Shown in pieces: positions 684 to 40,744 of a stretch of DNA of 42,927 bases. How positions within the stretch are numbered: the stretch's first letter is position 1; each line of letters begins with the position of its first letter. The notes under the pieces were generated by a model. That model did no database searches. It was not told the DNA's origin and worked only from the letters and a program-made list of their open reading frames with translations. Origin of the DNA: Escherichia virus mEp460_4F5; sequence record LR595868.1; one strand, written 5' to 3'. The position numbers were made by a program, and so were the translations under genes.

Positions 684-2785
684 TGCTGAATCAGGAAACC
701 GCAAAGGCAGCACGAACCGATTCAGGTTATATCCTTCGAGCACCGAGACGAATGCGGGTTGCTGATGCCGTTGCTCAGTATATGCGGGTGCCCATGGGGG
801 CAGGGAACTCAGTCCCGTGGGATCCGCTGGTGGCACCGTATGTTATTGAGCCGATGAACTGCCTGGCCTCGCGTGAATACGACGCAGTGATATTTGTTGG
901 CCCGGCACGAACCGGCAAGACTATCGGCCTGATTGACGGCTGGGTGATTTACAACGTGATTTGCGATCCTGCTGATATGCTGATCATTCAGATGACGGAG
1001 GAAAAAGCCCGCGAACACTCCAAAAAACGACTCGCCAGAACGTTTCGCGTCAGCCCGGAAGTGGTCAGTCGCCTGAGTCCGAACAAAAATGACAACAACG
1101 TTTATGACAGAACATTCCTTGCTGGCAACTACCTGAAAATCGGCTGGCCGTCAGTCAATATCATGTCCTCATCAGATTATAAATGCGTCGCGCTGACGGA
1201 TTATGACCGTTTTCCGGAAGATATTGATGGCGAGGGGGATGCCTTCTCTCTTGCCTCAAAACGTACCACCACATTTATGTCCAGCGGTATGACGCTGGTG
1301 GAGAGTTCCCCCGGCAGGGATGTGAAGGATGTGAAATGGCGACGGACTTCACCGCATGAGGCTCCACCAACCACGGGGATCCTGTCGCTCTATAACCGTG
1401 GTGATCGCCGTCGCTGGTACTGGCCCTGTCCACACTGTGGTGAGTATTTTCAGCCCTGCGGCGATGTGGTTGCTGGTTTCCGTGATATTGCCGATCCCGT
1501 GCTGGCAAGTGAGGCGGCTTATATTCAGTGTCCTTCCTGTTCAGGACGGATTATGCCTGAACAAAAACGTGAGCTGAACGGACGTGGGGTCTGGTTGCGG
1601 GATGGTGAATCCATCAATGCGGATGGCAGTCGTTATGGTGATCCCCGACGCTCACGTATTGCGTCATTCTGGATGGAGGGTCCGGCAGCTGCTTACCAGA
1701 CACTCTCGCAACTCGTTTACAAACTGCTTACTGCAGAACAGGAATACGAGACAACCGGAAGTGAAGAAACACTCAAGACGGTTATCAATACCGACTGGGG
1801 ATTACCTTATCTTCCCCGCGCCAGCATGGAGCAACGAAAAAGTGAACTGCTTGAGCAGCGGGCAGAGCCAGTTCTTTCCCGCAGTGTGCCGGATGGCGTT
1901 AATTTCCTTGTGGCGACAGTGGATGTGCAGGCGGGACGTCATCGCCGTTTTGTGGTTCAGGTAACGGGCTATGGCAGCCGTGGCGAACGCTGGATTATTG
2001 ATCGTTACAACATCACGCAGTCATTGCGCGGTGACAGCGACGGGGAGAGCCAGCGAATTGATCCGGCCAGCTATCCGGAAGACTGGGATGTCCTGCTGAC
2101 GGATGTTTTTCATAAAAGCTGGCCGCTGGCCTCCAATCCTTCTCAACAAATGCGACTGATGGCAATGGCGGTGGACTCCGGCGGTGAAGACGGGGTCACT
2201 GATAATGCCTATAAATTCTGGCGTCGTTGCCGTCGTGATGGCCTTGGTAAACGTATTTACCTGTTTAAGGGCGACAGCATCCGGCGCGCAAAACTGATCA
2301 CCCGTACATTCCCTGATAACACCGGACGAACGGGCCGACGGGCGCAGGCCGCAGGTGATGTGCCGCTCTGGCTTCTTCAGACGGATGCCCTGAAAGACCG
2401 GGTGAATAACGCGTTATGGCGTGACTCGCCAGGTCCCGGCTATGTGCATTTCCCTGACTGGCTGGGGAGCTGGTTTTACGACGAACTGACGTATGAAGAG
2501 CGGAGCAGTGACGGGAAATGGAGTAAGCCGGGGCGCGGTGCCAACGAAGCTTTTGACCTGATGGTGTATGCCGAGGCTCTGGTCATTCTGCATGGATACG
2601 AAAAGATCCGCTGGCCGGATGCACCGGAGTGGGCGAGCCGGGAAACCTGGCTGGAGTGTGTCCCGGACAGTACCGAACCGTCACCCACACCGGAACCTGT
2701 ATCCACGCCTGTTAAAAAACAAAAACGGAAGAAAACAGTAACTGACGATGTTAACCCCTGGCTGACTTCCGGAGGATGGTTATGA
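683..2785 (+). CDS. A: Terminase large subunit (lambda gpA-like)
   Basis: 700-aa ORF; AGGAGG ribosome-binding site at about 673-678; sequence VIFVGPARTGKT (Walker A-like ATPase motif); position and size match lambda A. Confidence 0.9.
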   Translation: MLNQETAKAARTDSGYILRAPRRMRVADAVAQYMRVPMGAGNSVPWDPLVAPYVIEPMNCLASREYDAVIFVGPARTGKTIGLIDGWVIYNVICDPADMLIIQMTEEKAREHSKKRLARTFRVSPEVVSRLSPNKNDNNVYDRTFLAGNYLKIGWPSVNIMSSSDYKCVALTDYDRFPEDIDGEGDAFSLASKRTTTFMSSGMTLVESSPGRDVKDVKWRRTSPHEAPPTTGILSLYNRGDRRRWYWPCPHCGEYFQPCGDVVAGFRDIADPVLASEAAYIQCPSCSGRIMPEQKRELNGRGVWLRDGESINADGSRYGDPRRSRIASFWMEGPAAAYQTLSQLVYKLLTAEQEYETTGSEETLKTVINTDWGLPYLPRASMEQRKSELLEQRAEPVLSRSVPDGVNFLVATVDVQAGRHRRFVVQVTGYGSRGERWIIDRYNITQSLRGDSDGESQRIDPASYPEDWDVLLTDVFHKSWPLASNPSQQMRLMAMAVDSGGEDGVTDNAYKFWRRCRRDGLGKRIYLFKGDSIRRAKLITRTFPDNTGRTGRRAQAAGDVPLWLLQTDALKDRVNNALWRDSPGPGYVHFPDWLGSWFYDELTYEERSSDGKWSKPGRGANEAFDLMVYAEALVILHGYEKIRWPDAPEWASRETWLECVPDSTEPSPTPEPVSTPVKKQKRKKTVTDDVNPWLTSGGWL

Positions 2786-2994
2786 ACCAGAATGATATCG
2801 AAGCCATGATTCAGCGTTATACGGAAGCTGAAATGGCGGTGCTGGACGGAAAATCCGTCACCTTTAATGGTCAGCAGATGACCATGGAAAACTTATCTGA
2901 GATCCGGCAGGGACGGCAGGAGTGGGAGCGCCGCCTTGCGGCTCTGATTACACGACGACGGGGGCATCCCGGGTACCGGCTGGCGAGGTTCTGA
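2782..2994 (+). CDS. W: Head-tail joining protein gpW-like
   Basis: About 70-aa ORF between terminase and portal; start chosen at the ATG at 2782 (GGAGG about 6 nt upstream), which forms an ATGA overlap with the terminase stop; the stop overlaps the portal start. Confidence 0.65.
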   Translation: MNQNDIEAMIQRYTEAEMAVLDGKSVTFNGQQMTMENLSEIRQGRQEWERRLAALITRRRGHPGYRLARF

Positions 2995-4502
2995 TGGCAA
3001 TTCTTGATGATGTGATTGGCGTTTTTTCACCAGGATGGAAAGCGGCAAGGCTGCGTTCCCGTGCGGTGATCCAGGCTTATGAGGCCGTAAAAACGACGCG
3101 GACACACAAAGCCCGGCGGGAAAACCGAACTGCCGACCAGTTAAGCCAGTACGGGGCCGTGTCGTTACGTGAGCAGGCCCGTTACCTTGATAACAACCAC
3201 GATCTGGTTATTGGTGTATTTGACAAGCTGGAAGAACGGGTGGTGGGGAAAAACGGGATTATTGTCGAGCCACATCCGGTATTACGCAATGGGGCCATTG
3301 CCCGTGACCTGGCTGCGGAGATTCGCACCCGATGGAGTGAATGGTCTGTCAGCCCGGAAGTCACCGGGCAGTTTACCCGTCCGATGCTGGAACGTCTGAT
3401 GCTGCGTACCTGGCTGCGCGATGGTGAGGTGTTTGCCCAGATGGTTTCCGGGCGCATAAACAGCCTGACGCCTTCTGCCGGTGTTCATTTCTGGCTGGAG
3501 GCGCTCGAGCCGGACTTTATTCCCATGACCAGTGATGAGAGCAACAGGCTGAATCAGGGCGTGTTTGTTGATGACTGGGGGCGTCCCGAAAAATATCTGG
3601 TGTATAAAAGCCGTCCCGTATCCGGACGGCAGATGGAAACCAAAGAAGTGGATGCAGAGCGAATGCTGCATCTTAAATTTGTTCGCCGTCTGCACCAGAT
3701 GCGCGGGACGTCTTTGTTGTCCGGTGTGCTGATCCGCCTCAGTGCCCTGAAAGAGTATGAAGATTCTGAGCTGACTGCAGCAAGGATCGCCGCTGCTCTG
3801 GGGATGTACATCCGCAAAGGCGACGGGCAGAGCTATGAACCGGATGGTAATGGCAGCAAGGATAAGGAACGCGAGCTTACCATTCAGCCAGGCATTATTT
3901 ACGACGATCTGAAACCCGGCGAAGAAATCGGAATGGTGAAGTCGGATCGTCCCAATCCTAACCTTGAAACTTTTCGTAATGGTCAGTTGCGTGCCGTGGC
4001 GGCGGGCAGTCGTCTGAGTTTTTCCAGTACGGCACGCAACTATAACGGTACTTACAGCGCCCAGCGTCAGGAACTGGTTGAGTCTACTGATGGCTACCTG
4101 ATCCTGCAGGACTGGTTTATTGGTGCCGTCACCCGCCCGATGTATCGTGCCTGGCTGAAACAGGCTGTGGCATCCGGTGTTATCAGGCTACCCCGCGATC
4201 TTGACCGTTCTTCACTGTATACCGCGGTGTATTCCGGACCGGTGATGCCGTGGATTGACCCTGTTAAGGAGGCTGAGGCCTGGAAAATCCAGATTCGTGG
4301 TGGAGCGGCGACAGAATCAGACTGGGTACGTGCAGGTGGTCGTAATCCGGATGATGTCAAACGTCGGCGCAAGGCCGAAATTGATGAAAACCGCAAGCTG
4401 GATCTGGTATTTGATACCGATCCAGCCAGTGATAAAGGAGGCAGCAGTGCCGCAACGAAACGACAGGAGCCGCAGCATACCGACGACCAGTCCGAAGAAT
4501 AA
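2994..4502 (+). CDS. B: Portal protein (lambda B family)
   Basis: About 500-aa ORF following W with an ATGA overlap; the ORF track extends it upstream from 2922, but the in-frame ATG at 2994 coincides with the W stop. Confidence 0.8.
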   Translation: MAILDDVIGVFSPGWKAARLRSRAVIQAYEAVKTTRTHKARRENRTADQLSQYGAVSLREQARYLDNNHDLVIGVFDKLEERVVGKNGIIVEPHPVLRNGAIARDLAAEIRTRWSEWSVSPEVTGQFTRPMLERLMLRTWLRDGEVFAQMVSGRINSLTPSAGVHFWLEALEPDFIPMTSDESNRLNQGVFVDDWGRPEKYLVYKSRPVSGRQMETKEVDAERMLHLKFVRRLHQMRGTSLLSGVLIRLSALKEYEDSELTAARIAAALGMYIRKGDGQSYEPDGNGSKDKERELTIQPGIIYDDLKPGEEIGMVKSDRPNPNLETFRNGQLRAVAAGSRLSFSSTARNYNGTYSAQRQELVESTDGYLILQDWFIGAVTRPMYRAWLKQAVASGVIRLPRDLDRSSLYTAVYSGPVMPWIDPVKEAEAWKIQIRGGAATESDWVRAGGRNPDDVKRRRKAEIDENRKLDLVFDTDPASDKGGSSAATKRQEPQHTDDQSEE

Positions 4503-12716: not shown

Positions 12717-13045
12717 TGGAGACGTTTCACTGGAAAGTGCGCCCGGATATGAATGTGGTATCAGAGCCGAAAGTGGTGACAGTGAAGCTGGGCGATGGTT
12801 ATGAACAGCGTCGTGCGGCGGGACTGAATAACCAGTTGTCGACTTACAGCGTGACGATACGTGTTCGTAAATGTGAACACCCATCTTTAAAAGCCTTTCT
12901 GGAACGGCACGGTGGCGTCCGCGCATTTCAGTGGACGCCACCTTATGACTGGAAGCCGATCAGGGTGGTTTGTCGTAAATGGTCGGCAAGCGTGGGGGCG
13001 CTGTGGGTAACCATAACGGCAGATTTTGAACAGGTCGTGGCATAG
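12716..13045 (+). CDS. M: Minor tail protein gpM
   Basis: 109 aa, the same length as lambda M, and lambda M-like in sequence (FLE.HGG ... WTPPY.W); TAATG overlap with H. Confidence 0.9.
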   Translation: METFHWKVRPDMNVVSEPKVVTVKLGDGYEQRRAAGLNNQLSTYSVTIRVRKCEHPSLKAFLERHGGVRAFQWTPPYDWKPIRVVCRKWSASVGALWVTITADFEQVVA

Positions 13046-13054
13046 GAGGCCCTG

Positions 13055-13753
13055 ATGCAGGATATTCCACAGGAAACACATCATGAGACGACACGCCTCA
13101 CTCAGTCAGCCCAGGTGGTGCTCTGGGAAATCGATCTGACAGAGGTCGGTGGAGAACGTTATTTTTTCTGTAATGAGCAGAACGAAAAAGGTGAGCCGGT
13201 CACCTGGCAGGGGCGACAGTATCAGGCGTATCCCATTCAGGGGAGTGGTTTTGAACTGAATGGCAAAGGCACCAGTACGCGCCCCACGCTGACGGTTTCT
13301 AACCTGTACGGTATGGTCACCGGGATGGTGGAAGATCTGCAGAGTCTGGTCGGCGGAACGGTGGTCCGGCGTAAGGTTTACGCCCGTTTTCTGGATGCGG
13401 TGAACTTCGTCAACGGAAACAGTGACGCCGATCCGGAGCAGGAGGTGATCAGCCGCTGGCGCATTGAGCAGTGCAGCGAACTGAGCGCGGTGAGTGCCTC
13501 TTTTGTACTGTCCACGCCGACGGAAACGGACGGCGCTGTTTTTCCGGGACGTATCATGCTGGCCAACACCTGCACCTGGACCTATCGCGGCGATGAGTGC
13601 GGTTATCACGGTCCGGCGGTCGCGGATGAATATGACCAGCCAACGTCCGATATCACGAAGGATAAATGCAGCAAATGCCTGAGCGGTTGTAAGTTCCGCA
13701 ATAACGTCGGCAACTTTGGCGGCTTCCTTTCCATTAACAAACTTTCGCAGTAA
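13055..13753 (+). CDS. L: Minor tail protein gpL
   Basis: 232 aa; near-identical to lambda L as I recall it. Confidence 0.9.
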   Translation: MQDIPQETHHETTRLTQSAQVVLWEIDLTEVGGERYFFCNEQNEKGEPVTWQGRQYQAYPIQGSGFELNGKGTSTRPTLTVSNLYGMVTGMVEDLQSLVGGTVVRRKVYARFLDAVNFVNGNSDADPEQEVISRWRIEQCSELSAVSASFVLSTPTETDGAVFPGRIMLANTCTWTYRGDECGYHGPAVADEYDQPTSDITKDKCSKCLSGCKFRNNVGNFGGFLSINKLSQ

Positions 13754-13758
13754 ATCCC

Positions 13759-14502
13759 ATGACACAGACAGAATCAGCGATTCTGGCGCACGCCCGGCGA
13801 TGTGCGCCAGCGGAGTCGTGCGGCTTCGTGGTAAGCACGCCGGAGGGGGAAAGATATTTCCCCTGCGTGAATATCTCCGGTGAGCCGGAGGCGTATTTCC
13901 GTATGTCGCCGGAAGACTGGCTGCAGGCAGAAATGCAGGGTGAGATTGTGGCGCTGGTCCACAGCCACCCCGGTGGTCTGCCCTGGCTGAGTGAGGCCGA
14001 CCGGCGGCTGCAGGTGCAGAGTGATTTGCCGTGGTGGCTGGTCTGCCGGGGGACGATTCATAAGTTCCGCTGTGTGCCGCATCTCACCGGGCGGCGCTTT
14101 GAGCACGGGGTGACGGACTGTTACACGCTGTTCCGGGATGCTTATCATCTGGCGGGGATTGAGATGCCGGATTTTCATCGCGGGGATGACTGGTGGCGTC
14201 ACGGTCAGAATCTCTATCTGGATAATCTGGAGGCCACAGGGCTGTATCAGGTGCCGTTGTCATCAGCACAACCGGGCGATGTGCTGCTGTGCTGTTTTGG
14301 TTCATCGGTGCCGAATCATGCCGCCATTTACTGTGGTGATGGCGAGCTGCTGCACCATATTCCTGAACAACTGAGCAAACGAGAGAGGTATACCGACAAA
14401 TGGCAGCGACGCACACACTCCCTCTGGCGTCACCGGGCATGGCGCGCATCTGCCTTTACGGGGATTTGCAACGATTTGGCCGCCGCATCGACCTTCGTGT
14501 GA
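13759..14502 (+). CDS. K: Tail tip assembly protein gpK (JAB/MPN plus NlpC/P60 domains)
   Basis: 247-aa ORF; JAMM-like motif HSHPGG ... S.AD in the N-terminal half; NlpC/P60-like Cys (VTDCYTLF) and His (PNHAAIY) in the C-terminal half; overlaps I by about 100 nt as in lambda. Confidence 0.85.
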   Translation: MTQTESAILAHARRCAPAESCGFVVSTPEGERYFPCVNISGEPEAYFRMSPEDWLQAEMQGEIVALVHSHPGGLPWLSEADRRLQVQSDLPWWLVCRGTIHKFRCVPHLTGRRFEHGVTDCYTLFRDAYHLAGIEMPDFHRGDDWWRHGQNLYLDNLEATGLYQVPLSSAQPGDVLLCCFGSSVPNHAAIYCGDGELLHHIPEQLSKRERYTDKWQRRTHSLWRHRAWRASAFTGICNDLAAASTFV

Positions 14503-15071
14503 AAACGGGGGCTGAAGCCATCCGCGCACTGGCCACACAGCTCCCGGTGTTTCGTCAGAAACTGAGCGACGGCTGGTATCAGGTACGGATTGCCGGGCGG
14601 GACGTCAGCACGTCCGGGTTAACGGCGCAGTTACATGAGACTCTGCCTGATGGCGCTGTGATTCATATTGTTCCCAGAGTCGCCGGGGCCAAGTCAGGTG
14701 GCGTATTCCAGATTGTCCTGGGGGCTGCCGCCATTGCCGGATCATTCTTTACCGCCGGAGCCACCCTTGCAGCATGGGGGGCAGCCATTGGGGCCGGTGG
14801 TATGACCGGCATCCTGTTTTCTCTCGGTGCCAGTATGGTGCTCGGTGGTGTGGCGCAGATGCTGGCACCGAAAGCCAGAACTCCCCGTACACAGACAACG
14901 GATAACGGCAAACAGAACACCTATTTCTCCTCACTGGATAACATGGTTGCCCAGGGCAATGTTCTGCCCGTTCTGTACGGTGAAATGCGCGTGGGGTCAC
15001 GCGTGGTTTCTCAGGAGATCAGCACGGCAGACGAAGGGGACGGTGGTCAGGTTGTGGTGATTGGTCGCTGA
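14400..15071 (+). CDS. I: Tail assembly protein gpI
   Basis: 223 aa; near-identical to lambda I as recalled. Confidence 0.9.
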   Translation: MAATHTLPLASPGMARICLYGDLQRFGRRIDLRVKTGAEAIRALATQLPVFRQKLSDGWYQVRIAGRDVSTSGLTAQLHETLPDGAVIHIVPRVAGAKSGGVFQIVLGAAAIAGSFFTAGATLAAWGAAIGAGGMTGILFSLGASMVLGGVAQMLAPKARTPRTQTTDNGKQNTYFSSLDNMVAQGNVLPVLYGEMRVGSRVVSQEISTADEGDGGQVVVIGR

Positions 15072-15090
15072 TGCAAAATGTTTTATGTGA

Positions 15091-15111
15091 AACCGCCTGC
15101 GGGCGGTTTTG
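15091..15111 (+). terminator. Hairpin in the I-J intergenic region (possible attenuator)
   Basis: ACCGCC-TGCG-GGCGGT hairpin followed by TTTT, just before the J ribosome-binding site. Confidence 0.35.
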
Positions 15112-15131
15112 TCGTTTACGGAGCGTGAGGA

Positions 15132-18100
15132 ATGGGTAAAGGCAGCAGTAAGGGGCATACCCCGCGCGAAGCGAAGGACAACCTGAAGTCCACGCAGTTG
15201 CTGAGTGTGATCGATGCCATCAGCGAAGGGCCGGTTGAAGGTCCGGTGGATGGATTAAAAAGCGTGCTGCTGAACAGTACGCCGGTGCTGGACACTGAGG
15301 GGAATACCAACATATCCGGTGTCACGGTGGTGTTCCGGGCAGGTGAGCAGGAGCAGACTCCGCCGGAGGGGTTTGAATCCTCCGGTTCCGAGACGGTGCT
15401 CGGTACAGAAGTGAAATATGACACGCCGATCACCCGGACCATCACGTCGGCAAACATTGACCGTCTGCGTTTTACTTTCGGCGTGCAGACACTGGTGGAA
15501 ACCACCTCAAAGGGGGACAGGAATCCGTCGGAAGTCCGCCTGCTGGTTCAGATACAGCGTAACGGTGGCTGGGTGACGGAAAAAGACATCACCATTAAGG
15601 GCAAAACCACCTCGCAGTATCTGGCCTCGGTGGTGGTGGGTAACCTGCCGCCGCGCCCGTTTAATATCCGGATGCGCAGGATGACGCCGGACAGCACCAC
15701 AGACCAGCTGCAGAACAAAACGCTCTGGTCGTCATACACCGAAATCATCGATGTGAAACAGTGCTACCCGAACACGGCACTGGTCGGCGTGCAGGTGGAC
15801 TCGGAACAGTTCGGCAGTCAGCAGGTGAGCCGTAATTATCATCTTCGCGGGCGCATTCTGCAGGTGCCGTCGAACTATAACCCGCAGACGCGGCAATACA
15901 GCGGTATCTGGGACGGAACGTTTAAGCCAGCATACAGCAACAACATGGCCTGGTGTCTGTGGGATATGCTGACCCATCCGCGCTACGGCATGGGGAAACG
16001 TCTCGGTGCGGCGGATGTGGACAAATGGGCGCTGTATGTCATCGGCCAGAATTGCGACCAGTCGGTGCCGGATGGCTTTGGTGGCACGGAGCCGCGCATC
16101 ACCTGTAATGCCTGGCTGACCACACAGCGTAAGGCGTGGGATGTGCTCAGTGATTTCTGCTCGGCGATGCGCTGTATGCCGGTATGGAACGGACAGACGC
16201 TGACATTCGTGCAGGACCGACCATCGGATAAGGTGTGGACCTATAACTGCAGTAATGTGGTGATGCCGGATGATGGTGCGCCGTTCCGCTACAGCTTCAG
16301 CGCCCTGAAAGACCGCCATAATGCCGTTGAGGTGAACTGGATTGACCCGGATAACGGCTGGGAGACGGCGACAGAGCTTGTGGAGGACACGCAGGCCATT
16401 GCCCGTTACGGTCGTAACGTCACGAAGATGGATGCCTTTGGCTGTACCAGTCGGGGGCAGGCACACCGCGCCGGGCTGTGGCTGATTAAAACGGAGCTGC
16501 TGGAAACGCAGACCGTGGACTTCAGCGTGGGCGCAGAAGGGCTTCGCCATGTACCGGGCGATGTCATTGAAATCTGCGATGATGACTATGCGGGTATCAG
16601 CATCGGCGGGCGCGTGCTGGCGGTGAACAGCCAGGCGCGGACACTGACGCTCGACCGTGAAATCATGCTGCCATCCTCCGGCACCACGCTGATAAGCCTG
16701 GTTGACGGAAATGGCAATCCGGTCAGCGTGGAGGTCCAGTCCGTCACCGACGGCGTGAAGGTGAAAGTGAGCCGTGTTCCTGACGGCGTTGCCGGATACA
16801 GCGTGTGGGGGCTGAAGCTGCCGACGCTGCGCCAGCGCCTGTTCCGCTGCGTGAGTATCCGTGAGAACGACGACGGCACGTATGCCATCACCGCCGTGCA
16901 GCATGTACCGGAAAAAGAAGCCATCGTGGATAACGGGGCGCACTTTGACGGCGACCAGAGCGGCACGGTGAATGGTGTCACGCCGCCAGCAGTGCAGCAC
17001 CTGACTGCCGAAGTCACCGCAGACAGCGGGGAGTATCAGGTACTGGCCCGCTGGGACACGCCGAAGGTGGTGAAGGGCGTGAGTTTCATGCTTCGCCTGA
17101 CCGTGGCAGCGGATGACGGCAGTGAGCGGCTGGTCAGCACAGCCCGGACGGCGGAAACCACATACCGCTTCACACAACTGGCGCTGGGGAACTACAGGCT
17201 GACAGTCCGGGCAGTAAATGCGTGGGGGCAGCAGGGCGATCCGGCATCGGTATCGTTCCGGATTGCCGCACCGGCAGCGCCGTCGCAGATTGAGCTGACA
17301 CCGGGGTATTTTCAGATAACCGCCACGCCGCATCTTGCGGTTTATGATCCGACGGTACAGTTTGAGTTCTGGTTCTCGGAAAAGCGGATTGCGGATATCA
17401 GGCAGGTTGAAACCACAGCACGCTATCTTGGCACGGCGCTGTACTGGATAGCCGCCAGTATCAATATCAAACCGGGCCATGATTATTATTTTTACATCCG
17501 CAGTGTGAACACCGTTGGCAAATCGGCATTTGTGGAGGCTGTTGGCCAGCCGAGTGATGATGCATCCGGCTATCTGAATTTTTTCAAAGGAGAGATAGGG
17601 AAAACCCATCTGGCTCAGGAGTTGTGGACGCAGATTGATAACGGTCAGCTTGCGCCTGACCTGGCTGAAATCAGGACGTCCATTACGGGTGTCAGCAATG
17701 AAATCACGCAGACCGTCAATAAGAAACTGGAAGACCAGAGTGCAGCGATCCAGCAGATACAGAAGGTTCAGGTTGATACAAATAATAACCTGAACAGCAT
17801 GTGGGCTGTGAAGCTGCAGCAGATGCAGGACGGACGCCTTTATATCGCGGGTATTGGTGCCGGTATTGAGAATACTCCTGACGGTATGCAGAGTCAGGTG
17901 CTGCTGGCGGCGGACAGGATTGCGATGATTAATCCTGCGAATGGCAACACAAAGCCGATGTTTGTTGGGCAGGGCGATCAGATATTCATGAACGAAGTGT
18001 TCCTGAAATATCTGACGGCTCCCACCATTACCAGCGGTGGCAATCCCCCAACGTTTTCACTGACACCTGATGGTCGACTTTCTGCGAAAAATGCGGATAT

Positions 18101-18614
18101 CAGCGGTAACGTGAACGCGAACTCCGGGACGCTCAACAACGTCACGATTAATCAGAACTGTCGGATTCTGGGAAAACTGTCAGCTAACCAGATTGAAGGT
18201 GATATTGTCAAAACGGTGGGAAAAGCCTTTCCGAGAAATGGCAGTTATGCCAGCGGTACAATAACGGTCACTGTGTACGATGACCAGGCTTTTGACCGTC
18301 AGATAGTAGTCCCCCCCGTTCTGTTTCGTGGGGGTAAGCATGAAAACTTCAACAGCAACAACCAACAGTCATACTGGTATTCAACCTGTAAGCTGCAGGT
18401 ACTGAAGAACGGACAGGAAATCTTTCAGCAACCCGCGACGGATGTCAGCAGGGTATTTTCATCAGTCATTGATATGCCTGCCGGACACGGCCATGTCACC
18501 CTGACTTTCAATGTTTCTTCATATGGTGCTAATAACTGGACGCCAACGACCAGTATCAGCGACCTTCTTGTTGTTGTGATGAAGAAATCTACAGCCGGTA
18601 TCAGTATCAGTTGA
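15132..18614 (+). CDS. J: Tail tip / host-specificity protein gpJ
   Basis: 1160 aa; the N-terminal roughly 1000 residues are lambda J-like; the central segment and the last roughly 150 residues differ from lambda J as I recall it. Confidence 0.9.
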
Positions 18615-18633
18615 ATTTTATAACCCAGATACG

Positions 18634-18657
18634 GGCGCCAGAAATGGCGCCTTTTTT
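18634..18657 (+). terminator. Intrinsic terminator downstream of J
   Basis: GGCGCC-AGAAAT-GGCGCC hairpin followed by TTTTTT. Confidence 0.65.
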
Positions 18658-18672
18658 ATTTGTGGAGTGAAT

Positions 18673-20733
18673 ATGGCAGTACAGATTTCAGGCGTGCTGA
18701 AAGACGGTGCAGGAAAACCGATACAGAACTGCACCATTCAGCTCAAAGCAAAACGTAACAGCACCACGGTTGTGGTGAACACGGTGGCCTCAGAAAATCC
18801 GGATGAAGCCGGACGTTACAGCATGGATGTCGAGTATGGCCAGTACAGCGTTATCCTGCTGGTTGAAGGTTTTCCGCCTTCACATGCCGGGACCATCACC
18901 GTGTATGAGGATTCTAAGCCGGGGACGCTGAATGATTTTCTGGGCGCTGCAACAGAAGATGATGTTCGTCCGGAGGCACTGTATCGTTTTGAAAAGATGG
19001 TGGAAGAGGTGGCACGCAACGCTGAAGCCGCCTCTCAGAGCGCAGCGGCAGCAAAGAAATCAGAAACAGCAGCGGCATCGTCCAGGAACGCGGCGAAAAC
19101 ATCAGAGACGAATGCAGGTAACAGCGCGAAAGCGGCAGCTTCTTCAAAAACAGCCGCACAAAACGCAGCAACAGCGGCAGAACGTTCAGAGACAAATGCC
19201 CGTGCGTCAGAAGAAGCCTCCGCAGACAGTGAAGAGGCTTCCCGCCGTAATGCAGAGTCAGCCGCTGAAAATGCCGGAGTCGCCACCACAAAAGCGCGGG
19301 AGGCTGCAGCAGACGCAACAAAGGCCGGGCAGAAAAAGGATGAGGCTCTGTCGGCAGCGACACGAGCTGAAAAGGCGGCAGACCGCGCAGAAGCCGCAGC
19401 GGAAGTGACTGCAGAGCCCTATGCGAATATAGTGCCGCCGCTGCCTGATGTGTGGATACCGTTTAACGATTCACTGGATATGATTGCGGGTTTTTCTCCG
19501 GGCTATAAAAAAATAGCTATTGGTGACGATGTGGTTCAGGTCGCCAGTGATAAACAGGTTAATTTCAGTCGCGCATCAACGGCAACATATATCAACAAAT
19601 CTGGCGAACTGAAAACGGCGGAAATTAATGAGCCGCGATTTGAGTGTGATGGCCTGCTTATTGAGGGACAAAGAACGAACTACATGCTCAATTCGGAAAG
19701 TCCAGCCAGCTGGGGGAAGTCATCAAACATGGATGTGCCCGAAACCGGGACGGATAGTTTTGGTTTTACTTATGGAAAGTTTGTCTGCAACGATTCTCTG
19801 GTTGGGCAAACTTCGGCTATTAATATGGCATCAATTGCTGCAACAAAGTCAGTTGATGTCTCAGGCGATAACAAGTACGTGACAACCTCATGCCGTTTTA
19901 AAACAGAACGACAGGTAAGGTTACGTATACGGTTTGATAAGTATGATGGTAGTGCAACAACTTTTCTTGGCGATGCGTACATTGATACGCAAACGCTTGA
20001 AATTAATATGACAGGTGGTGCTGCCGGCAGAATTACGGCACGAGTCAGGAAGGATAAGACCACGGGCTGGATTTTTGCAGAGGCAACGATTCAGGCAATT
20101 GATGGTGAGTTAAAAATAGGCTCTCAGATACAGTATTCTCCTGAGCAGGGTGGGGCAACAGTATCTGGTGACTATATTTATCTTGCCACCCCACAAGTAG
20201 AGAATGGGCCGTGTGTATCATCATTTATTATTTCAGGAGGCAGCGCAACGACAAGAGCCAGTGATTTGGTTAGTATCCCCACCAGAAATAATCTTTATAA
20301 GTTACCATTTACTTTTTTACTTGAGATTCATAAAAACTGGGATATTGCACCAAACGCCGCACCCCGCGTGTGGGATATAGCAGCAGCCAATACCGGGCAA
20401 TCAGCAATTGCAGCAATCAACAGAGGTAGTGGTAAGTTATATATGAGTCTGTCAAACCCTTCAGGCTCGTATGTTAATAGCGCAGCGACAGATGTATTTA
20501 CAGAGAAAACCACATTTGGATGTATTGCAAAAGCTGATGGTCACTTTCATGTGGTGACAAATGGTAAAGCGGTTAATGAAGTTTATTGTGAATATAATGG
20601 CGTGACCGCTGATAAAAATATCCGATTTGGAGGGCAGACGAATACTGGAGAACGACATCTGTTTGGCCATATTCGCAATTTCCGCATATGGCATAAAGAA
20701 TTAAATGACAGGCAATTAAAAGAGGTCGTATGA
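18673..20733 (+). CDS. stf: Side tail fibre protein (Stf-like N-terminus, Ala/Ser-rich repeat shaft, unrecognised C-terminal domain)
   Basis: N-terminal roughly 120 aa match the lambda Stf N-terminus (MAVQISGVLKDG ... VEGFPPSHAGTITVYEDS); followed by an A/S/E-rich low-complexity shaft and a roughly 300-aa C-terminal region unlike lambda Stf; GGAG 5 nt upstream of the ATG at 18673. Confidence 0.8.
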   Translation: MAVQISGVLKDGAGKPIQNCTIQLKAKRNSTTVVVNTVASENPDEAGRYSMDVEYGQYSVILLVEGFPPSHAGTITVYEDSKPGTLNDFLGAATEDDVRPEALYRFEKMVEEVARNAEAASQSAAAAKKSETAAASSRNAAKTSETNAGNSAKAAASSKTAAQNAATAAERSETNARASEEASADSEEASRRNAESAAENAGVATTKAREAAADATKAGQKKDEALSAATRAEKAADRAEAAAEVTAEPYANIVPPLPDVWIPFNDSLDMIAGFSPGYKKIAIGDDVVQVASDKQVNFSRASTATYINKSGELKTAEINEPRFECDGLLIEGQRTNYMLNSESPASWGKSSNMDVPETGTDSFGFTYGKFVCNDSLVGQTSAINMASIAATKSVDVSGDNKYVTTSCRFKTERQVRLRIRFDKYDGSATTFLGDAYIDTQTLEINMTGGAAGRITARVRKDKTTGWIFAEATIQAIDGELKIGSQIQYSPEQGGATVSGDYIYLATPQVENGPCVSSFIISGGSATTRASDLVSIPTRNNLYKLPFTFLLEIHKNWDIAPNAAPRVWDIAAANTGQSAIAAINRGSGKLYMSLSNPSGSYVNSAATDVFTEKTTFGCIAKADGHFHVVTNGKAVNEVYCEYNGVTADKNIRFGGQTNTGERHLFGHIRNFRIWHKELNDRQLKEVV

Positions 20734-21008
20734 AAGATTTAACTTTGAAGTTTCATGACAAACTGCAGTTTAAGGCCTTCCTGTCATCTCTTGGCTGGGC
20801 GGAAGATGAAGACCTCCAGAATAAACTGTTAGTTGATGAAATTGGTTTCACCTACACAGAAACAGGGGTAACAGAAGAGGGAGAACCTGTCTGTATCCGG
20901 AATGATGGTTATTTTGTCAACATTCGCATTCTTGATGACTTGTTTGATGTTTCTGTATTCTCTGATTATGTCGTGGAGCTGGAAACACCGCTTCGGGAAT
21001 GGAGCTGA
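20730..21008 (+). CDS. Hypothetical acidic protein, possible tail-fibre chaperone
   Basis: 92-aa ORF translationally coupled to stf by an ATGA overlap; not similar to lambda Tfa. Confidence 0.4.
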   Translation: MKDLTLKFHDKLQFKAFLSSLGWAEDEDLQNKLLVDEIGFTYTETGVTEEGEPVCIRNDGYFVNIRILDDLFDVSVFSDYVVELETPLREWS

Positions 21009-21020
21009 AAGGAGGAAATA

Positions 21021-21308
21021 ATGGATATAAGCCCCTTACTTCATGCACTTTGTGCTGTGGCTGCGCAGATACTGGTTGGTCTTTTTACCGGAAACTGGGC
21101 TTACGGAGCGATAGCCGGTTGTACGTTCTTCATTGCGCGTGAACACACCCAGGCAGAATATCGCTGGATTGAAATGTTCGGGCATGGCAAGCGAATGAAT
21201 ATGCCGTGGTGGGGCGGTTTTGATCCGCGCGCGTGGGATGTGGCAAGCCTGATGGATTTTGCTGTGCCGGTGGTGGCGTGTCTGCTGATCTGGATGTTGA
21301 TCCGTTAA
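21021..21308 (+). CDS. Small integral membrane protein (accessory gene after the tail fibre)
   Basis: 95 aa with about three hydrophobic helices; GGAGG-like ribosome-binding site (AAGGAGGAAA) upstream. Confidence 0.45.
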   Translation: MDISPLLHALCAVAAQILVGLFTGNWAYGAIAGCTFFIAREHTQAEYRWIEMFGHGKRMNMPWWGGFDPRAWDVASLMDFAVPVVACLLIWMLIR

Positions 21309-21735: not shown

Positions 21736-22833
21736 TCAAGAGGTCTTATTTCTGCTCTTTTGGAGCTCTTCAAAACGATTATGTAAAGATTTCGGATACA
21801 GTTCGGTATATACCTGCCATAGCACGTTTAATGAACGATGCCCTGTAACTTGGGCGACTTCCTCAATACTAAAGCCAGCCTCAAATAAGCGACTTGCCCC
21901 TTCTCTACGCAAATCATGGTATCGCAGATCTTTAATACCTAATTTGCTTCTTACTCTCTGAAATCCCGCAGTAACAGAAGTGCTGTTATATGGAAAAATG
22001 AATTCCGATTTTTTGGGCTGTCGTTGGACGATATCCCAGGCTTCCCCAAGCAAGGCTACTTTCATGTGGTTGCCTTCCTTTTTGCGTGGATCTTTCCTGT
22101 CTCTTACGAGTATAGATTTTTGTTCTTGGTCGAGATCTTCCCATCGTAACCGGCATACTTCTCCGATTCGCATACAGGACCACACAGAAAATTTGAGGAT
22201 ATCAACGAACGGAATTTTTGAGCATTTATGAGTAGATCGTTGTTGAAGGCCTTCAATGAGCATGTCCAGTTCATCAGATGCTGGTCTACGATTACGACGG
22301 TTTGATTTACCAATCAAACCAAGTTTAAGTAGATATGGACGAGCGCTTTTCGCCGGGTTTGATGTGTAATTAATTCCGTATACAGGTTTGGCCGCATCCA
22401 GAACACTGCCAAGATAACTAACATCGTGGCTGACTGTTGCTGGACCTGCACCAGCGTTGTTTCTTAGCCTACAATGTTCAATTACGTCATTTTCTGTCAG
22501 TTCGGATAGTTTGATCGCGGAGATGTCACTATCCATAAGCAGTTCCAGCACATATCTTTTAGTACGACCTGCTTTACCTCCGGCATTTGGGTCATTTAAA
22601 TATTTGTGTAGTAAGTCACGGACTGTAAGTCCGTCAACTGCATTTGATGATGGAATGCCATATAGATCTAATTCCATCACTTTCTGTGTACCCCATGTTT
22701 TGGCATGGGCATGTTTAGGGAATGTTTTGCTTTCCCTGTAAGTGATAACACCTTTTTCTTTGATAATCACATTACAGCGATAGCGTGGTGTGCCATCGGA
22801 TTTTAGTCGTTTCTCTATGTTATAGTACGCCAT
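21736..22833 (-). CDS. int: Tyrosine integrase
   Basis: 365 aa; C-terminal catalytic region with the R ... H..R ... Y pattern (LRYHDLRREGASRLFEAG ... GHRS ... YTELY); GAGG ribosome-binding site about 8 nt upstream. Confidence 0.9.
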   Translation of the reverse strand: MAYYNIEKRLKSDGTPRYRCNVIIKEKGVITYRESKTFPKHAHAKTWGTQKVMELDLYGIPSSNAVDGLTVRDLLHKYLNDPNAGGKAGRTKRYVLELLMDSDISAIKLSELTENDVIEHCRLRNNAGAGPATVSHDVSYLGSVLDAAKPVYGINYTSNPAKSARPYLLKLGLIGKSNRRNRRPASDELDMLIEGLQQRSTHKCSKIPFVDILKFSVWSCMRIGEVCRLRWEDLDQEQKSILVRDRKDPRKKEGNHMKVALLGEAWDIVQRQPKKSEFIFPYNSTSVTAGFQRVRSKLGIKDLRYHDLRREGASRLFEAGFSIEEVAQVTGHRSLNVLWQVYTELYPKSLHNRFEELQKSRNKTS

Positions 22834-24440: not shown

Positions 24441-25013
24441 TCATAATTCTGTGCTGGTGGCAGGAATTAATTTCTGCCAGATAGCGGAAACATATTTTGC
24501 CTGATGACGGGCATCAGCCAGGGCGTTGTGCCGTTCGCCATCGAAAGGCATGTCCATTTTGGGGTCGAATCCGATGGAACGCCCAAGCGTAACGATCGTG
24601 CGTACATCGTGGTCATTCCAGTACGCCCACGGGCAGATTTGTCCTGCTCGCTCGTAAGCTCCACGTAAAATTACGTTGTCGAAGGTGGCCCCGTTACCCC
24701 AGACTTTTAAATATTTCGTATTGTCTGCGTGCCGGTTAATGAAATGGTTTAGTTCTGAGAGAGCATCGCTGATCGACAAAGTATCATCAATACAGATTGC
24801 AGCTCGCGCTTCAGGGCTTTGTTTCAACCACCACAGGATGGTATCGCCGTCAGGTGTAGCTCCTTGCTTCATAGCACTGTCTAGGCTGACAACCGCATAG
24901 AATTCTTGTCCGATGTCTCCGGTTTCTGGAGTGAAGAACACCGCGCCAATGGAAACGATCGGTGCATCCTTATTTTTCCCCATCGTCTCAAGGTCGATCA
25001 TTAAGTTGTTCAT
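24441..25013 (-). CDS. DEDDh 3'-5' exonuclease (DnaQ-like)
   Basis: MIDLETMG near the N-terminus (Exo I motif), WGNGATFD (Exo II) and H.ALADA near the C-terminus (Exo III); start overlaps the upstream stop (ATGA). Confidence 0.75.
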   Translation of the reverse strand: MNNLMIDLETMGKNKDAPIVSIGAVFFTPETGDIGQEFYAVVSLDSAMKQGATPDGDTILWWLKQSPEARAAICIDDTLSISDALSELNHFINRHADNTKYLKVWGNGATFDNVILRGAYERAGQICPWAYWNDHDVRTIVTLGRSIGFDPKMDMPFDGERHNALADARHQAKYVSAIWQKLIPATSTEL

Positions 25014-25546
25014 CACTTCACCTCCTGCGGCGGTTCTGGTAGATGCATCCAGTGGGTTACACCGTCAATTGGTTCATCGTCGTCGTACTCCAATGCGGCT
25101 ATATAGAACCCGTCACGACGAGAATAAGAAATCCCGGACATTACAATGCCATCCGAAACAACTATAATGTCACCCGTTTCTTCCGGCATTCGCTCACTAC
25201 AGCTTATCCAGCCAGCCGGAATTACCGGAGAGCAGGTTGACGTTTCCGAGATTTCCCGAAAGTTTCCGGCCTGAGGCATGGCGGCGCGGTGACACCAGAT
25301 AATCCAGCCAATCGCCATATCCCATGCCATGTATTCGCCATCGCCATTTTTTGCCCTGCGGCGATCTACAGATTCCCCGAAACGCTTCTCCATAAATAAT
25401 TCATAGGCTGCCCGTTCATCCGATACTGCTTCCAGTGATGCCAGCGCGATTTCATAAGCCAGGCGCTCAATATTGTCTCGCACGTCCAGGCTGCCGATTC
25501 GCTCTCTGATTTCTTTAATCAGTTCTTTGTCGGTAAAAGTAGTCAT
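25013..25546 (-). CDS. DUF551-domain phage protein
   Basis: 177 aa; C-terminal ...THWMHLPEPP motif typical of DUF551. Confidence 0.6.
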   Translation of the reverse strand: MTTFTDKELIKEIRERIGSLDVRDNIERLAYEIALASLEAVSDERAAYELFMEKRFGESVDRRRAKNGDGEYMAWDMAIGWIIWCHRAAMPQAGNFREISETSTCSPVIPAGWISCSERMPEETGDIIVVSDGIVMSGISYSRRDGFYIAALEYDDDEPIDGVTHWMHLPEPPQEVK

Positions 25547-30644: not shown

Positions 30645-31271
30645 CTAGAGTTCGTATTGAACTCCTTTGACTACACCAATGATGAGGCAATTACCATTGA
30701 TCGGGATGTTGGGGTACCGGGGATTTAATGGCACTAAAAACTTTTGAGGGCCATCGATAACTAATTTTTTTACTGTGGCTTCGTTTGTTCCATCAAGTCT
30801 AGCGATGACTATTTTTCCATGCCGGGGTTCTGCATCAGGATCTACAATCACTGTTGCGCCTTCTGGTATTGTTGGGAGGCCGTTAGGGTTAGTCATGGAG
30901 TCGCCTTTAACCTCCAATGCAAATGAGTTATCACCAATCTTTAATGATGTATCTACCCACTTGTCTACTTCACTAAACACTTCTGCTGTCCTGCACTCAG
31001 TAAACTGCCCAGCCTGAACCCACGAGATTACAGGAACTCTGCGCATGTTTGTGACGAGTTTGCCTTCAAACTCCGCACCATAAAGAATGTAATCTATTGA
31101 CGTATTGAAGAACTTCGCTAATTTTGAAAGTGCTTCCCCACCAGGGACATTGATGTCTTTCTCCCAGTACCCCACAGCAACGTCACTTACTCCACAAAAT
31201 TTACCCAATTCTTTCTGGGACGTTCTGGTAACTCTTCTCAGAGCTTTTATACGCTGACCAACCGTTTCCAT
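30645..31271 (-). CDS. cI: CI-type repressor (HTH_XRE plus S24 LexA-like peptidase domain)
   Basis: 208 aa; N-terminal XRE-type HTH (GQRIKALR ... SQKELGKFCGVSDVAVGYWE); C-terminal S24 motifs (Ala-Gly cleavage site in WVQAGQF, GDSM serine, KIVIARL lysine); divergent from cro. Confidence 0.85.
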   Translation of the reverse strand: METVGQRIKALRRVTRTSQKELGKFCGVSDVAVGYWEKDINVPGGEALSKLAKFFNTSIDYILYGAEFEGKLVTNMRRVPVISWVQAGQFTECRTAEVFSEVDKWVDTSLKIGDNSFALEVKGDSMTNPNGLPTIPEGATVIVDPDAEPRHGKIVIARLDGTNEATVKKLVIDGPQKFLVPLNPRYPNIPINGNCLIIGVVKGVQYEL

Positions 31272-37604: not shown

Positions 37605-37627
37605 GGGGGAATTACCCCCCTTTTTTT
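37605..37627 (+). terminator. Strong intrinsic terminator immediately after Q
   Basis: GGGGG-AATTA-CCCCCC hairpin followed by TTTTTTT; the stop codon of the convergent minus-strand gene lies in its loop. Confidence 0.7.
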
Positions 37628-38160
37628 CTCTGTTGCTTTAATAAAATTTTAATATTTTGTCTGATTATGATGAGGCAATGTAATAAAAGAAATACCGTTA
37701 GTATTGCAAGCCATACGCAAAATAAGCATGCATATAAATTAGTTGAAAGTCCAATAGTGAATTGTGCAATTGCTGTTGTGATAGAACATAATATTGATGT
37801 ATTAATAAATGAGGATAAATTGTCTAAAGGTTTATAAAGTACACTATCATTGATTTTGTCAATAGGTATACCAGTGGCAATGCTATAAATTTCCTTATAT
37901 TCCTGAGTTGCAAAAACCTTATCGCGTAAATTTATTATGACAAAGGTATGCAGGCTCAATAAAAATGAGCCCACGGAAATAAAACCGGAGAAGAGATAGC
38001 CTCGTAAGTTTTTATGATAAAAATCAAAAAAGTTAACACTTACTTTAGGTGTGTTTCTGTACAATAGGTAAAGTGCAAGCAATGCCAGGATCGAGAATGC
38101 AAGCAGTGTAAGGTACTGATACCTCAATCTTTTATTTATTAGCCATTCATATAAAGGCAT
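37612..38160 (-). CDS. Four-helix integral membrane protein, second gene of the antisense AT-rich cassette (candidate effector)
   Basis: 182 aa; four hydrophobic segments of about 20 aa; basic C-terminus (KQQRKKGG); overlaps the upstream gene by 14 nt; AT-rich. Confidence 0.6.
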   Translation of the reverse strand: MPLYEWLINKRLRYQYLTLLAFSILALLALYLLYRNTPKVSVNFFDFYHKNLRGYLFSGFISVGSFLLSLHTFVIINLRDKVFATQEYKEIYSIATGIPIDKINDSVLYKPLDNLSSFINTSILCSITTAIAQFTIGLSTNLYACLFCVWLAILTVFLLLHCLIIIRQNIKILLKQQRKKGG

Positions 38161-39073
38161 TTTTATTCGTCCCGTTCAGCATTTCTTCTTTTATCATATC
38201 AAAAACAGGGTTTGTTGTATAATTATCGTTTGTCAATCCATTGACTTTATCGGCAATTATATCGAAATCGTATGTTTCAAAAAAAACAGGGCAGTTCATA
38301 AAATCAATGGTTTTTTCTATTCCTGCATGGTTTACTGCAATAACCTGTGCTTTAGCAACTCCACTCATAGAATTATAAATATTTGAAAGATTCTGAGATA
38401 GTTGTTGCACTTTTGTTCTGTCGCTAGAATTAAAATTCATATCTATTGTGGTGGTGTTAACAAATTGTTCAAGCGCAGTCATTGGTCCACCTTTAAAATC
38501 TATATAATTAAATTTAAAGCTTGTGCTTTTAATCTCTTTGAATTGACATAAAACACTCTGAATGTTGTTTTTATTTGTCATAAGGCTGAAAGTCAGTCTT
38601 TCTTTGTATTTTTTATTTATTGCAGTTACTTCTTTTTGTTTTGGTTTATCACCAAGTTTTTTTATTTCTTCTTTATTTTGATTTCTGATAAATTCATTAC
38701 TTATTGTTTCTAAATGAGAAAAGAGAGTGTTCAGACTGCATGAACCGTGGTGATACATATAGAGACCAGAAAGATTAGATTTTTTAATTAAGAAAAAGTT
38801 GAAATTAGCAAGTTTGTCACTTCCTTGAAGATCTTCAATTTTAAGCTGGAATTTACCATCAACAAATTGCGACTTACAGTTCTTTTTTTGGTTTCTGAAT
38901 GTGACAACTAATCCATAATAGAAATCATTCACATCCGAAATGAGAATTTTACGAGTATAGTCTGTGCGACTGTGTTCTCTGTTTGATGCGTTGATAAAAG
39001 CATTCATTACGTCAACGGTATTAATATTTTTGTTATTGTTATTTATTGTAAATCCTATGCTTCTAACTTTCAT
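38147..39073 (-). CDS. Hypothetical soluble protein, first gene of the antisense AT-rich cassette (candidate sensor)
   Basis: 308 aa; Asn/Lys-rich; no catalytic motif recognised by eye (no Walker A); AT-rich codon usage unlike the phage core. Confidence 0.6.
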   Translation of the reverse strand: MKVRSIGFTINNNNKNINTVDVMNAFINASNREHSRTDYTRKILISDVNDFYYGLVVTFRNQKKNCKSQFVDGKFQLKIEDLQGSDKLANFNFFLIKKSNLSGLYMYHHGSCSLNTLFSHLETISNEFIRNQNKEEIKKLGDKPKQKEVTAINKKYKERLTFSLMTNKNNIQSVLCQFKEIKSTSFKFNYIDFKGGPMTALEQFVNTTTIDMNFNSSDRTKVQQLSQNLSNIYNSMSGVAKAQVIAVNHAGIEKTIDFMNCPVFFETYDFDIIADKVNGLTNDNYTTNPVFDMIKEEMLNGTNKNAFI

Positions 39074-39691: not shown

Positions 39692-40744
39692 ATGAAAAAT
39701 ACTGTAAAAATAAACAGTGTTGATTTAATCAACGCTGATTGCCTGCATTTTATTCAGTCCCTGCCTGATGATTCCATTGACCTGATTGTTACCGATCCGC
39801 CTTACTTCAAGGTGAAACCTAACGGTTGGGACAATCAGTGGAAAGGGGACGAAAATTACCTTAAGTGGCTGGACCACTGTCTGGCCCAGTTCTGGCGGGT
39901 GTTAAAACCTGCCGGAAGCCTTTACCTGTTCTGTGGGCATCGCCTGGCATCTGATATTGAGATCATGATGCGTGAACGTTTCAACGTGCTTAACCATATC
40001 ATCTGGGCGAAGCCGTCCGGACGTTGGAATGGGTGTAATAAAGAAAGTCTGCGCGCATATTTTCCTGCCACAGAGCGCGTTCTGTTTGCTGAACATTACC
40101 AGGGGCCATATCGCGGCAAAAGTGACGGCTATGCGGCAAAAGAAAGGGAACTCAAACAGCACATAATGGCACCGCTGATATCGTATTTCAGGGATGCTCG
40201 TGCCGAACTGGGTATAACGGCAAAACAAATTGCCGAAGCCACAGGTAAGAAAAATATGGTTTCCCACTGGTTTGGTGCCAGTCAGTGGCAGTTGCCGAAT
40301 GAGGCTGACTATCGGAAGTTACAGGCACTGTTTTCCCGTATAGCGGCAGAGAAGTTTCAGGAACAACAACTGGAACAACCACACCACCAGCTGGTGGCAT
40401 CTTATGATTCACTGAATCGCAAATATTCTGAATTGCTGGATGAGTTTAAATCTCTCCGGCGCTATTTCTCCGTATCAGTCTCCGTGCCTTATACCGATGT
40501 CTGGACGCATAAGCCCGTTCAGTTCTACCCGGGTAAACATCCGTGCGAGAAACCGGCGGATATGCTCCGGCAAATAATCAATGCCAGTAGTCGACCTGGT
40601 GATCTGGTTGCTGATTTCTTTATGGGATCCGGTTCCACAATAAAAGCAGCAATGGCGCTGGGGCGTCGGGCGTTAGGTGTTGAACTTGAGTCAGAGCGGT
40701 TTAATCAGACGGTGAAAGAGGTAAGTGAACTGGTGGGGAAATAA
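39692..40744 (+). CDS. Orphan DNA methyltransferase (N6-adenine/N4-cytosine, DPPY motif)
   Basis: 350 aa; catalytic motif IVTDPPYF near the N-terminus and an AdoMet-binding F.GSGST motif near the C-terminus; no adjacent restriction endonuclease. Confidence 0.8.
   Translation: MKNTVKINSVDLINADCLHFIQSLPDDSIDLIVTDPPYFKVKPNGWDNQWKGDENYLKWLDHCLAQFWRVLKPAGSLYLFCGHRLASDIEIMMRERFNVLNHIIWAKPSGRWNGCNKESLRAYFPATERVLFAEHYQGPYRGKSDGYAAKERELKQHIMAPLISYFRDARAELGITAKQIAEATGKKNMVSHWFGASQWQLPNEADYRKLQALFSRIAAEKFQEQQLEQPHHQLVASYDSLNRKYSELLDEFKSLRRYFSVSVSVPYTDVWTHKPVQFYPGKHPCEKPADMLRQIINASSRPGDLVADFFMGSGSTIKAAMALGRRALGVELESERFNQTVKEVSELVGK

Follow-up and report, generated by a model that had tools for sequence, protein, structure and literature searches.

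Gene J of the lambdoid phage mEp460_4F5 is a mosaic of a lambda-type scaffold and a phage 21-like receptor-binding region

Gene J and its neighbours in a lambdoid genome

The sequence of mEp460_4F5, analysed here as one window of 42,927 nucleotides, is that of a complete lambdoid temperate phage whose left arm carries terminase, head, and tail genes closest to those of mEp460 and the PhiR phages. Gene J, which encodes the tail-tip attachment (host specificity) protein, occupies positions 15132..18614 on the + strand. Translation of this ORF gave a protein of 1160 amino acids, starting at ATG and ending at TGA, and a GGAG ribosome-binding site (15120..15123, + strand) is directly visible in the sequence 8 nt before the ATG. 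Homologues of M, L, K, and I directly precede J (ORFs at 12716, 13055, 13759, and 14400), and 12896-17628 aligns collinearly with lambda M-L-K-I-J, with 94% identity. Downstream of the J stop codon, a GC hairpin (ggcgcc/ggcgcc) and the T6 run behind it form a terminator-like element (18634..18657, + strand). A second terminator-like GC hairpin with a T run lies just 5′ of J, at 15092-15112. The phage 21 record annotates terminators at the equivalents of both hairpins, which sit within a late operon transcribed under antitermination.

A Pfam search revealed six J-specific domains, the complete J set, that together cover the full length of the protein. These are PF24801 (FNIII-A_GpJ; residues 86-207, E 3.7e-40); PF13550 (Phage-tail_3; residues 330-496, E 5.8e-42); PF24421 (Ig_J; residues 610-714) and PF24489 (Ig_J_second; residues 716-818), both far above the curated cut-off; PF09327 (Phage_Tail_Tip; residues 872-1000, E 3e-31), also far above its cut-off; and PF12421 (Ig_GpJ_C, the C-terminal receptor-binding domain; residues 1038-1160, E 1.6e-37). 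By this search, the N-terminal hub domains, two consecutive Ig/FNIII domains, the tail-tip fibre domain, and the Ig-like receptor-binding domain are all present. Protein alignment revealed a full-length lambda J homologue with 85% identity overall, and residues 1-835 align to chain J of PDB 8iyk. The gene position and the domain order (hub, two FNIII domains, helical shaft, beta-prism fibre, Ig-like receptor-binding domain) are the same as for lambda gpJ. At the nucleotide level, the gene is 97.8% identical to the J genes of phages ev017, PhiR57_1, and 21. We conclude that the ORF at 15132-18614 is a real, intact gene for a lambda-type tip attachment protein, an identification settled by matches among phage, E. 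coli genome, PDB, and exact-sequence records. Because its hub is 97% identical to that of lambda J, the protein probably forms a trimeric tail tip in the virion. A 625-amino-acid antisense ORF at 15732-17609, which falls wholly within the most conserved, GC-rich part of J, we take to be a stop-free antisense frame and not a gene.

The side tail fibre gene stf follows J (18673..20733, + strand) and is ~99% identical in nucleotide sequence to CPT_21_22 of phage 21. Its product has 686 amino acids counted from the ATG at 18673; the ORF list instead starts it at a GTG at 18667. The N-terminus matches PF08400 and the protein falls into PHROG tail-protein families, while the C-terminus gives a weak ConA/laminin-G-like match below the Pfam curated cut-off. 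We regard stf as a probable second adsorption determinant, common to phage 21. Between J and stf there is no lom gene in mEp460_4F5, as in phage 21; lom is found there in lambda, 434, PhiR55_1, and Ayreon. On the other side of stf, two small ORFs of unknown function (20730-21008, phrog_1361, and 21021-21308, phrog_1443), likewise the same in phage 21, stand where a recognisable tail fibre assembly chaperone is absent, and the whole arrangement of 18673-21308 is shared with that phage.

Similarity to phage 21 stops at position 21299. Phage 21 there carries the sitABCD iron/manganese transporter genes, in place of which mEp460_4F5 has a tyrosine integrase gene (21736-22833, − strand). Judged by where the match ends, 21299 is another mosaic boundary, bordering the tail fibre block on its right. 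Phage 21 also differs in the remainder of the genome, where the head genes of mEp460_4F5 are mEp460-like. Within the tail-tip genes, positions 12750-13249, which span the end of M and the start of L, contain 75 mismatches to phage 21 in 500 nt, while the other tail-tip genes typically have 1-14 per 250 nt. This high mismatch density suggests a further small recombination patch.

Elsewhere in the window, a CI-like repressor is encoded at 30645-31271 (− strand). An ORF at 24441-25016 (− strand), in the early-left region and adjoining a DUF551 protein, encodes an exoribonuclease-like protein with an Rv2179c-like 3′-5′ domain (PF16473, E 1.2e-75). Two adjacent ORFs at 37612-39073 (− strand) are oriented against their neighbours, and a DNA methylase gene (39692-40744) follows soon after. 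One encodes 308 amino acids and belongs to phrog_2802, a family of unknown function; the other, of 182 amino acids, had no match in Pfam, PHROG, or PADLOC. This pair may be a moron or accessory cassette.

A sharp break with lambda and a long match to phage 21

We compared the protein, segment by segment, with the 1132-amino-acid J of lambda (NP_040600; PDB 8iyk, 8xcj, 8xck). Residues 1-805, which comprise the hub and the two FNIII/Ig domains (15132..17546, + strand), are 97.1% identical without gaps, and the corresponding DNA is 92-97% identical. Identity falls to 47% over residues 806-930, where there is a net insertion of 28 residues, returns to 83% without gaps over residues 931-1005, and drops to 48.7% with 10 gap columns over residues 1006-1160. 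An earlier note on this DNA, made from the sequence alone, had recognised a gpJ at 15132-18614, and these coordinates proved exact for the full-length, 1160-residue lambda J homologue. Its view that roughly 1000 N-terminal residues are lambda-like is wrong as to extent: the lambda-like part is residues 1-805, beyond which only residues 931-1005 come back to high identity. The divergence it had noticed in the central segment and in the last ~150 residues is real in both places, corresponding to residues 806-930 and 1006-1160.

Alignment to lambda J and to other lambdoid J proteins, as the note had proposed, placed the breakpoint at gene nt ~2400. Mismatches to lambda rise there from 0-6 to 6-10 per 30 nt and stay high thereafter, a change far beyond chance. 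By mismatch density, the junction lies at 17532..17561 (+ strand; window ~17535-17560, residues ~802-810), where the second FNIII domain ends and the alpha-helical shaft begins; the count per 30 nt climbs there from 0-2 through 6 to 8-10. Nucleotide identity to lambda falls from ~93% to 55-79% within ~30 nt near position 17540, and on the 3′ side the shaft retains 56%, the fibre 64-79%, and the receptor-binding domain 55%.

We used the published domain boundaries of lambda J (PMC11101478) to map the region 3′ of the junction. The equivalent of the alpha-helical shaft (residues 809-889; 17556..17798, + strand), placed by alignment, has 42% identity with that of lambda and 100% with that of phage 21, and it exceeds the lambda shaft (lambda residues 809-861) by 28 residues. 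Hydrophobic occupancy of heptad a/d positions in the best register is 0.43 for this longer shaft and 0.53 for that of lambda, a simple count from which we make no coiled-coil claim. The central straight fibre, a beta prism (residues 890-1001; 17799..18134, + strand) covered by PF09327, shares 73% identity with its lambda counterpart and 99% with that of phage 21. The better-conserved stretch, residues 931-1005, has 79% nucleotide identity to lambda and 56% identity at third codon positions, values that point to an old divergence held by selection and not to shared recent ancestry.

The neck and Ig-like receptor-binding domain (residues 1002-1160; 18135..18611, + strand) are of the phage 21 type. 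Although only 47-49% identical to the lambda domain, this domain aligns with it from end to end and belongs to the same family, PF12421. Thus, the replacement of the C-terminus that the earlier note had described is a swap of alleles and not the arrival of an unrelated sequence. Compared with lambda, the sequence has insertions or deletions near lambda residues ~1012, ~1052, and ~1103-1107. Since the indel hotspots published for lambda J are 1012, 1048-1049, 1077-1078, and 1107 (PMC6646904), the mEp460_4F5 indels are at or near three of them.

Comparison with phage 21 (GenBank OL657228; J is CPT_21_21, UMO75436.1) revealed a different pattern. The phage 21 protein also has 1160 amino acids and is 98.4% identical, yet the differences are distributed very unevenly. 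Of the nucleotide mismatches, 76 lie in gene nt 1-2082 and one in nt 2083-3483 (the last 1401 nt). Likewise, 17 of the 18 amino acid differences affect residues 1-685, which leaves V912I, in the fibre, as the sole change further on. From residue 913 to residue 1160 the two proteins agree at every position, I1025 and V1026 among them. The nearly identical tract extends beyond the gene, as 17214..18891 (+ strand), which runs from late in J across the intergenic region into the first part of stf, has a single mismatch in 1678 nt, at 17865 (the V912I change). The 17 substitutions and 76 nucleotide differences in the first 685 codons indicate that the 5′ part of J comes from a lineage other than that of phage 21. 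In contrast, residues ~806-1160 are, on the strength of these matches, the phage 21 allele, which is already known.

We asked how the parts of J are combined in seven phages: mEp460_4F5, phage 21, PhiR55_1, Ayreon, lambda, 434, and 4A7. The first four have a long shaft/fibre block, while lambda, 434, and 4A7 have a short one. Identity to the mEp460_4F5 receptor-binding domain (residues 1035-1160) follows another order: 100% for phage 21, 99% for 4A7, 62% for PhiR55_1, 47% for lambda, 42% for 434, and 41% for Ayreon. In this comparison, the shaft/fibre block and the receptor-binding domain reassort independently of each other, in agreement with the published conclusion that lambda residues 960-1132, the J specificity region, recombine as an independent module (PMC6646904). 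With a sharp break at 17532-17561 and blocks that reassort among six other phages, the mosaic junction within a conserved gene that the note had suggested is well founded.

A different account of the 3′ divergence is that it arose gradually and in place, under diversifying selection and without module exchange. The J specificity region is indeed known to be fast-evolving and rich in indels (PMC6646904). However, identity to lambda at third codon positions falls from 80-93% on the 5′ side to 31-56% on the 3′ side over a boundary of ~30 nt, and GC content shifts at the same boundary from 0.588 to 0.491 (the equivalent values for lambda J are 0.583 and 0.544). Moreover, phage 21 has the same allele over the 3′ 1.4 kb but differs by 3.6% over the 5′ 2.1 kb, and the shaft/fibre and receptor-binding domain occur in other combinations in 4A7, PhiR55_1, and Ayreon. 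We therefore regard gradual change as extremely unlikely, and favour exchange of a module within J.

The exchanged region is common. Among phage records, 16 have the receptor-binding domain at ≥99% identity, 67 at 80-90%, 55 at 60-80%, and 98, lambda included, at less than 60%. In complete E. coli genomes, 266 records carry the 1068-nt 3′ block at ≥99% identity, and the best matches listed were 100% identical. The exact 1160-amino-acid protein is public on at least 952 contigs, where it is named host specificity protein J.

Receptor use of the phage 21-type domain

Since the receptor-binding domain matches that of a phage whose receptor use has been dissected, a prediction could be made. Knockout experiments identified LamB as the native and only receptor of phage 21 (OL657228) (10.1101/2023.04.13.536812; PMC11336670). 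The phage 21 ancestor did not lyse a lamB deletion strain and scored as LamB-only in dual-knockout assays (10.1101/2023.04.13.536812; PMC11336670). A single change in its J, I1025T, allowed use of OmpC, and OmpF was used after further changes (PMC11336670). Position 1025 of the mEp460_4F5 protein is the wild-type isoleucine, not the OmpC-conferring threonine. Because the domain is identical to that of LamB-using phage 21, LamB is the most probable porin receptor on E. coli K-12. We consider it very likely that LamB is the receptor of mEp460_4F5 J, as it is for lambda, despite the ~49% identity between the two domains. LamB dependence was demonstrated for the identical phage 21 domain on K-12 hosts only, and natural hosts have other LamB and OmpC alleles. 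The literature searched here offered nothing useful on the receptors of the ECOR-derived PhiR phages and no paper describing the A8/OmpC structure discussed below.

The closest solved structures to mEp460_4F5 J are A8 gpJ (E 2.5e-212) and lambda J713 (E 1.7e-163), both of which are fragments containing the J fibre and receptor domain. A8 gpJ is an engineered chimera solved in a closed form (PDB 9wca) and in an open form with EDL933 OmpC (PDB 9wcb). That this nearest structure of the domain type is bound to OmpC counts against the LamB assignment. The A8 domain is 82% identical over residues 1002-1160, differing at 29 of the 159 positions, and the differences cluster at 1047-1060, 1087-1092, 1099-1107, and 1119-1131. 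The two largest variable stretches, of 18 and 13 residues, are identical in both proteins. Unlike mEp460_4F5, A8 has the shaft and fibre of lambda. Phage 434, an OmpC user, has a homologous J (UMO75362.1) with the same domain order, a lambda-type short shaft, and a receptor-binding domain that is 42-49% identical to that of mEp460_4F5 and so represents a third domain type. Its C-terminus is no closer to mEp460_4F5 than is that of lambda, and thus the 434-type OmpC-binding domain was not matched.

We also modelled the C-terminal domain, as the note had advised. The single-sequence AlphaFold2 model of residues 1002-1160 (pLDDT 58.6, pTM 0.59) is too poor for mapping loops or contacts. Searched against the PDB, this low-confidence model returned only J receptor-binding domains at E <1e-9.

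Could the domain bind OmpC instead of, or besides, LamB on natural hosts? Its relative A8 delivers DNA through OmpC into lamB-deleted cells (PMC11338833), and one substitution, I1025T, is enough to give phage 21 access to OmpC. Nevertheless, the mEp460_4F5 domain is separated from that of A8 by its 29 differing positions and is 100% identical to that of wild-type phage 21, I1025 included, which scored as LamB-only and without lysis of lamB-deleted K-12. We consider use of OmpC in this way unlikely. The earlier note had gone further and predicted a different outer-membrane receptor from the replaced C-terminus; a foreign domain of this sort could direct the phage to a receptor other than LamB, for example FhuA or OmpC. 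In keeping with such retargeting, the domain has only 47-49% identity to that of lambda, with indels, and differing J C-termini accompany differing receptors in other lambdoid phages, such as 434 with OmpC (PMC11101478). However, the domain shares its Pfam family (PF12421) with that of lambda, it is just 42-49% identical to the OmpC-type domain of 434, and the phage 21 domain to which it is identical is LamB-dependent. Retargeting is thus very unlikely, and the receptor switch that the note had predicted probably does not occur: residues 913-1160 match those of LamB-dependent phage 21 without exception. LamB-dependent adsorption, the outcome that the note itself had set against its prediction, is on record by proxy, for the identical domain.

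LamB remains the receptor that we favour. Since one I1025T change admits OmpC in phage 21, receptor choice is labile in this clade. The unmutated phage 21-type domain might stand at the boundary between LamB and OmpC and might use OmpC too on wild E. coli with other porin alleles, such as EDL933-type OmpC, and the longer shaft might alter the threshold for triggering. We regard this as a long shot. If it were true, the host range of the many prophages carrying this module would depend on OmpC polymorphism and not on LamB alone.

Proposed origin of the gene and implications for receptor prediction

In the model that we propose, residues 1-805 (the hub and two FNIII/Ig domains) would be the common lambda-type scaffold of the trimeric tail-tip J of a lambdoid temperate phage. 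Residues ~806-1160 (shaft, fibre, and receptor-binding domain) would be the phage 21 allele, acquired by homologous recombination inside the gene. For lambda, the events after binding have been described: loops of the receptor-binding domain enter the mouth of LamB, the domains splay apart, the fibre undergoes a twist, and refolding of the helical shaft and opening of the tip follow (PMC11101478). By analogy with the lambda structures, the distal loops of the trimeric receptor-binding domain of mEp460_4F5 may reach into a trimeric porin through its extracellular mouth. Binding may then cause the domains to spread, the fibre to twist, and the helical shaft to unfold, so that the tail tip opens for DNA ejection. 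A separate, reversible first contact is probably made by the side tail fibre, whose gene follows J.

The J gene of mEp460_4F5 is an ordinary, already known mosaic allele. It has little discovery value, as the protein is already present on those 952 or more contigs and the domain is that of classical phage 21, whose receptor use has been experimentally dissected. What it illustrates is how poorly sequence distance tracks receptor use in this family. Divergence of ~50% in the receptor-binding domain does not mean a different receptor, since lambda and phage 21 both use LamB, while 82% identity is no guarantee of the same receptor, since A8 uses OmpC. The contrast between the lambda/phage 21 pair and A8 indicates that the level of divergence does not predict the receptor, and that receptor calls made from sequence need a near-identical reference that has been typed by experiment.
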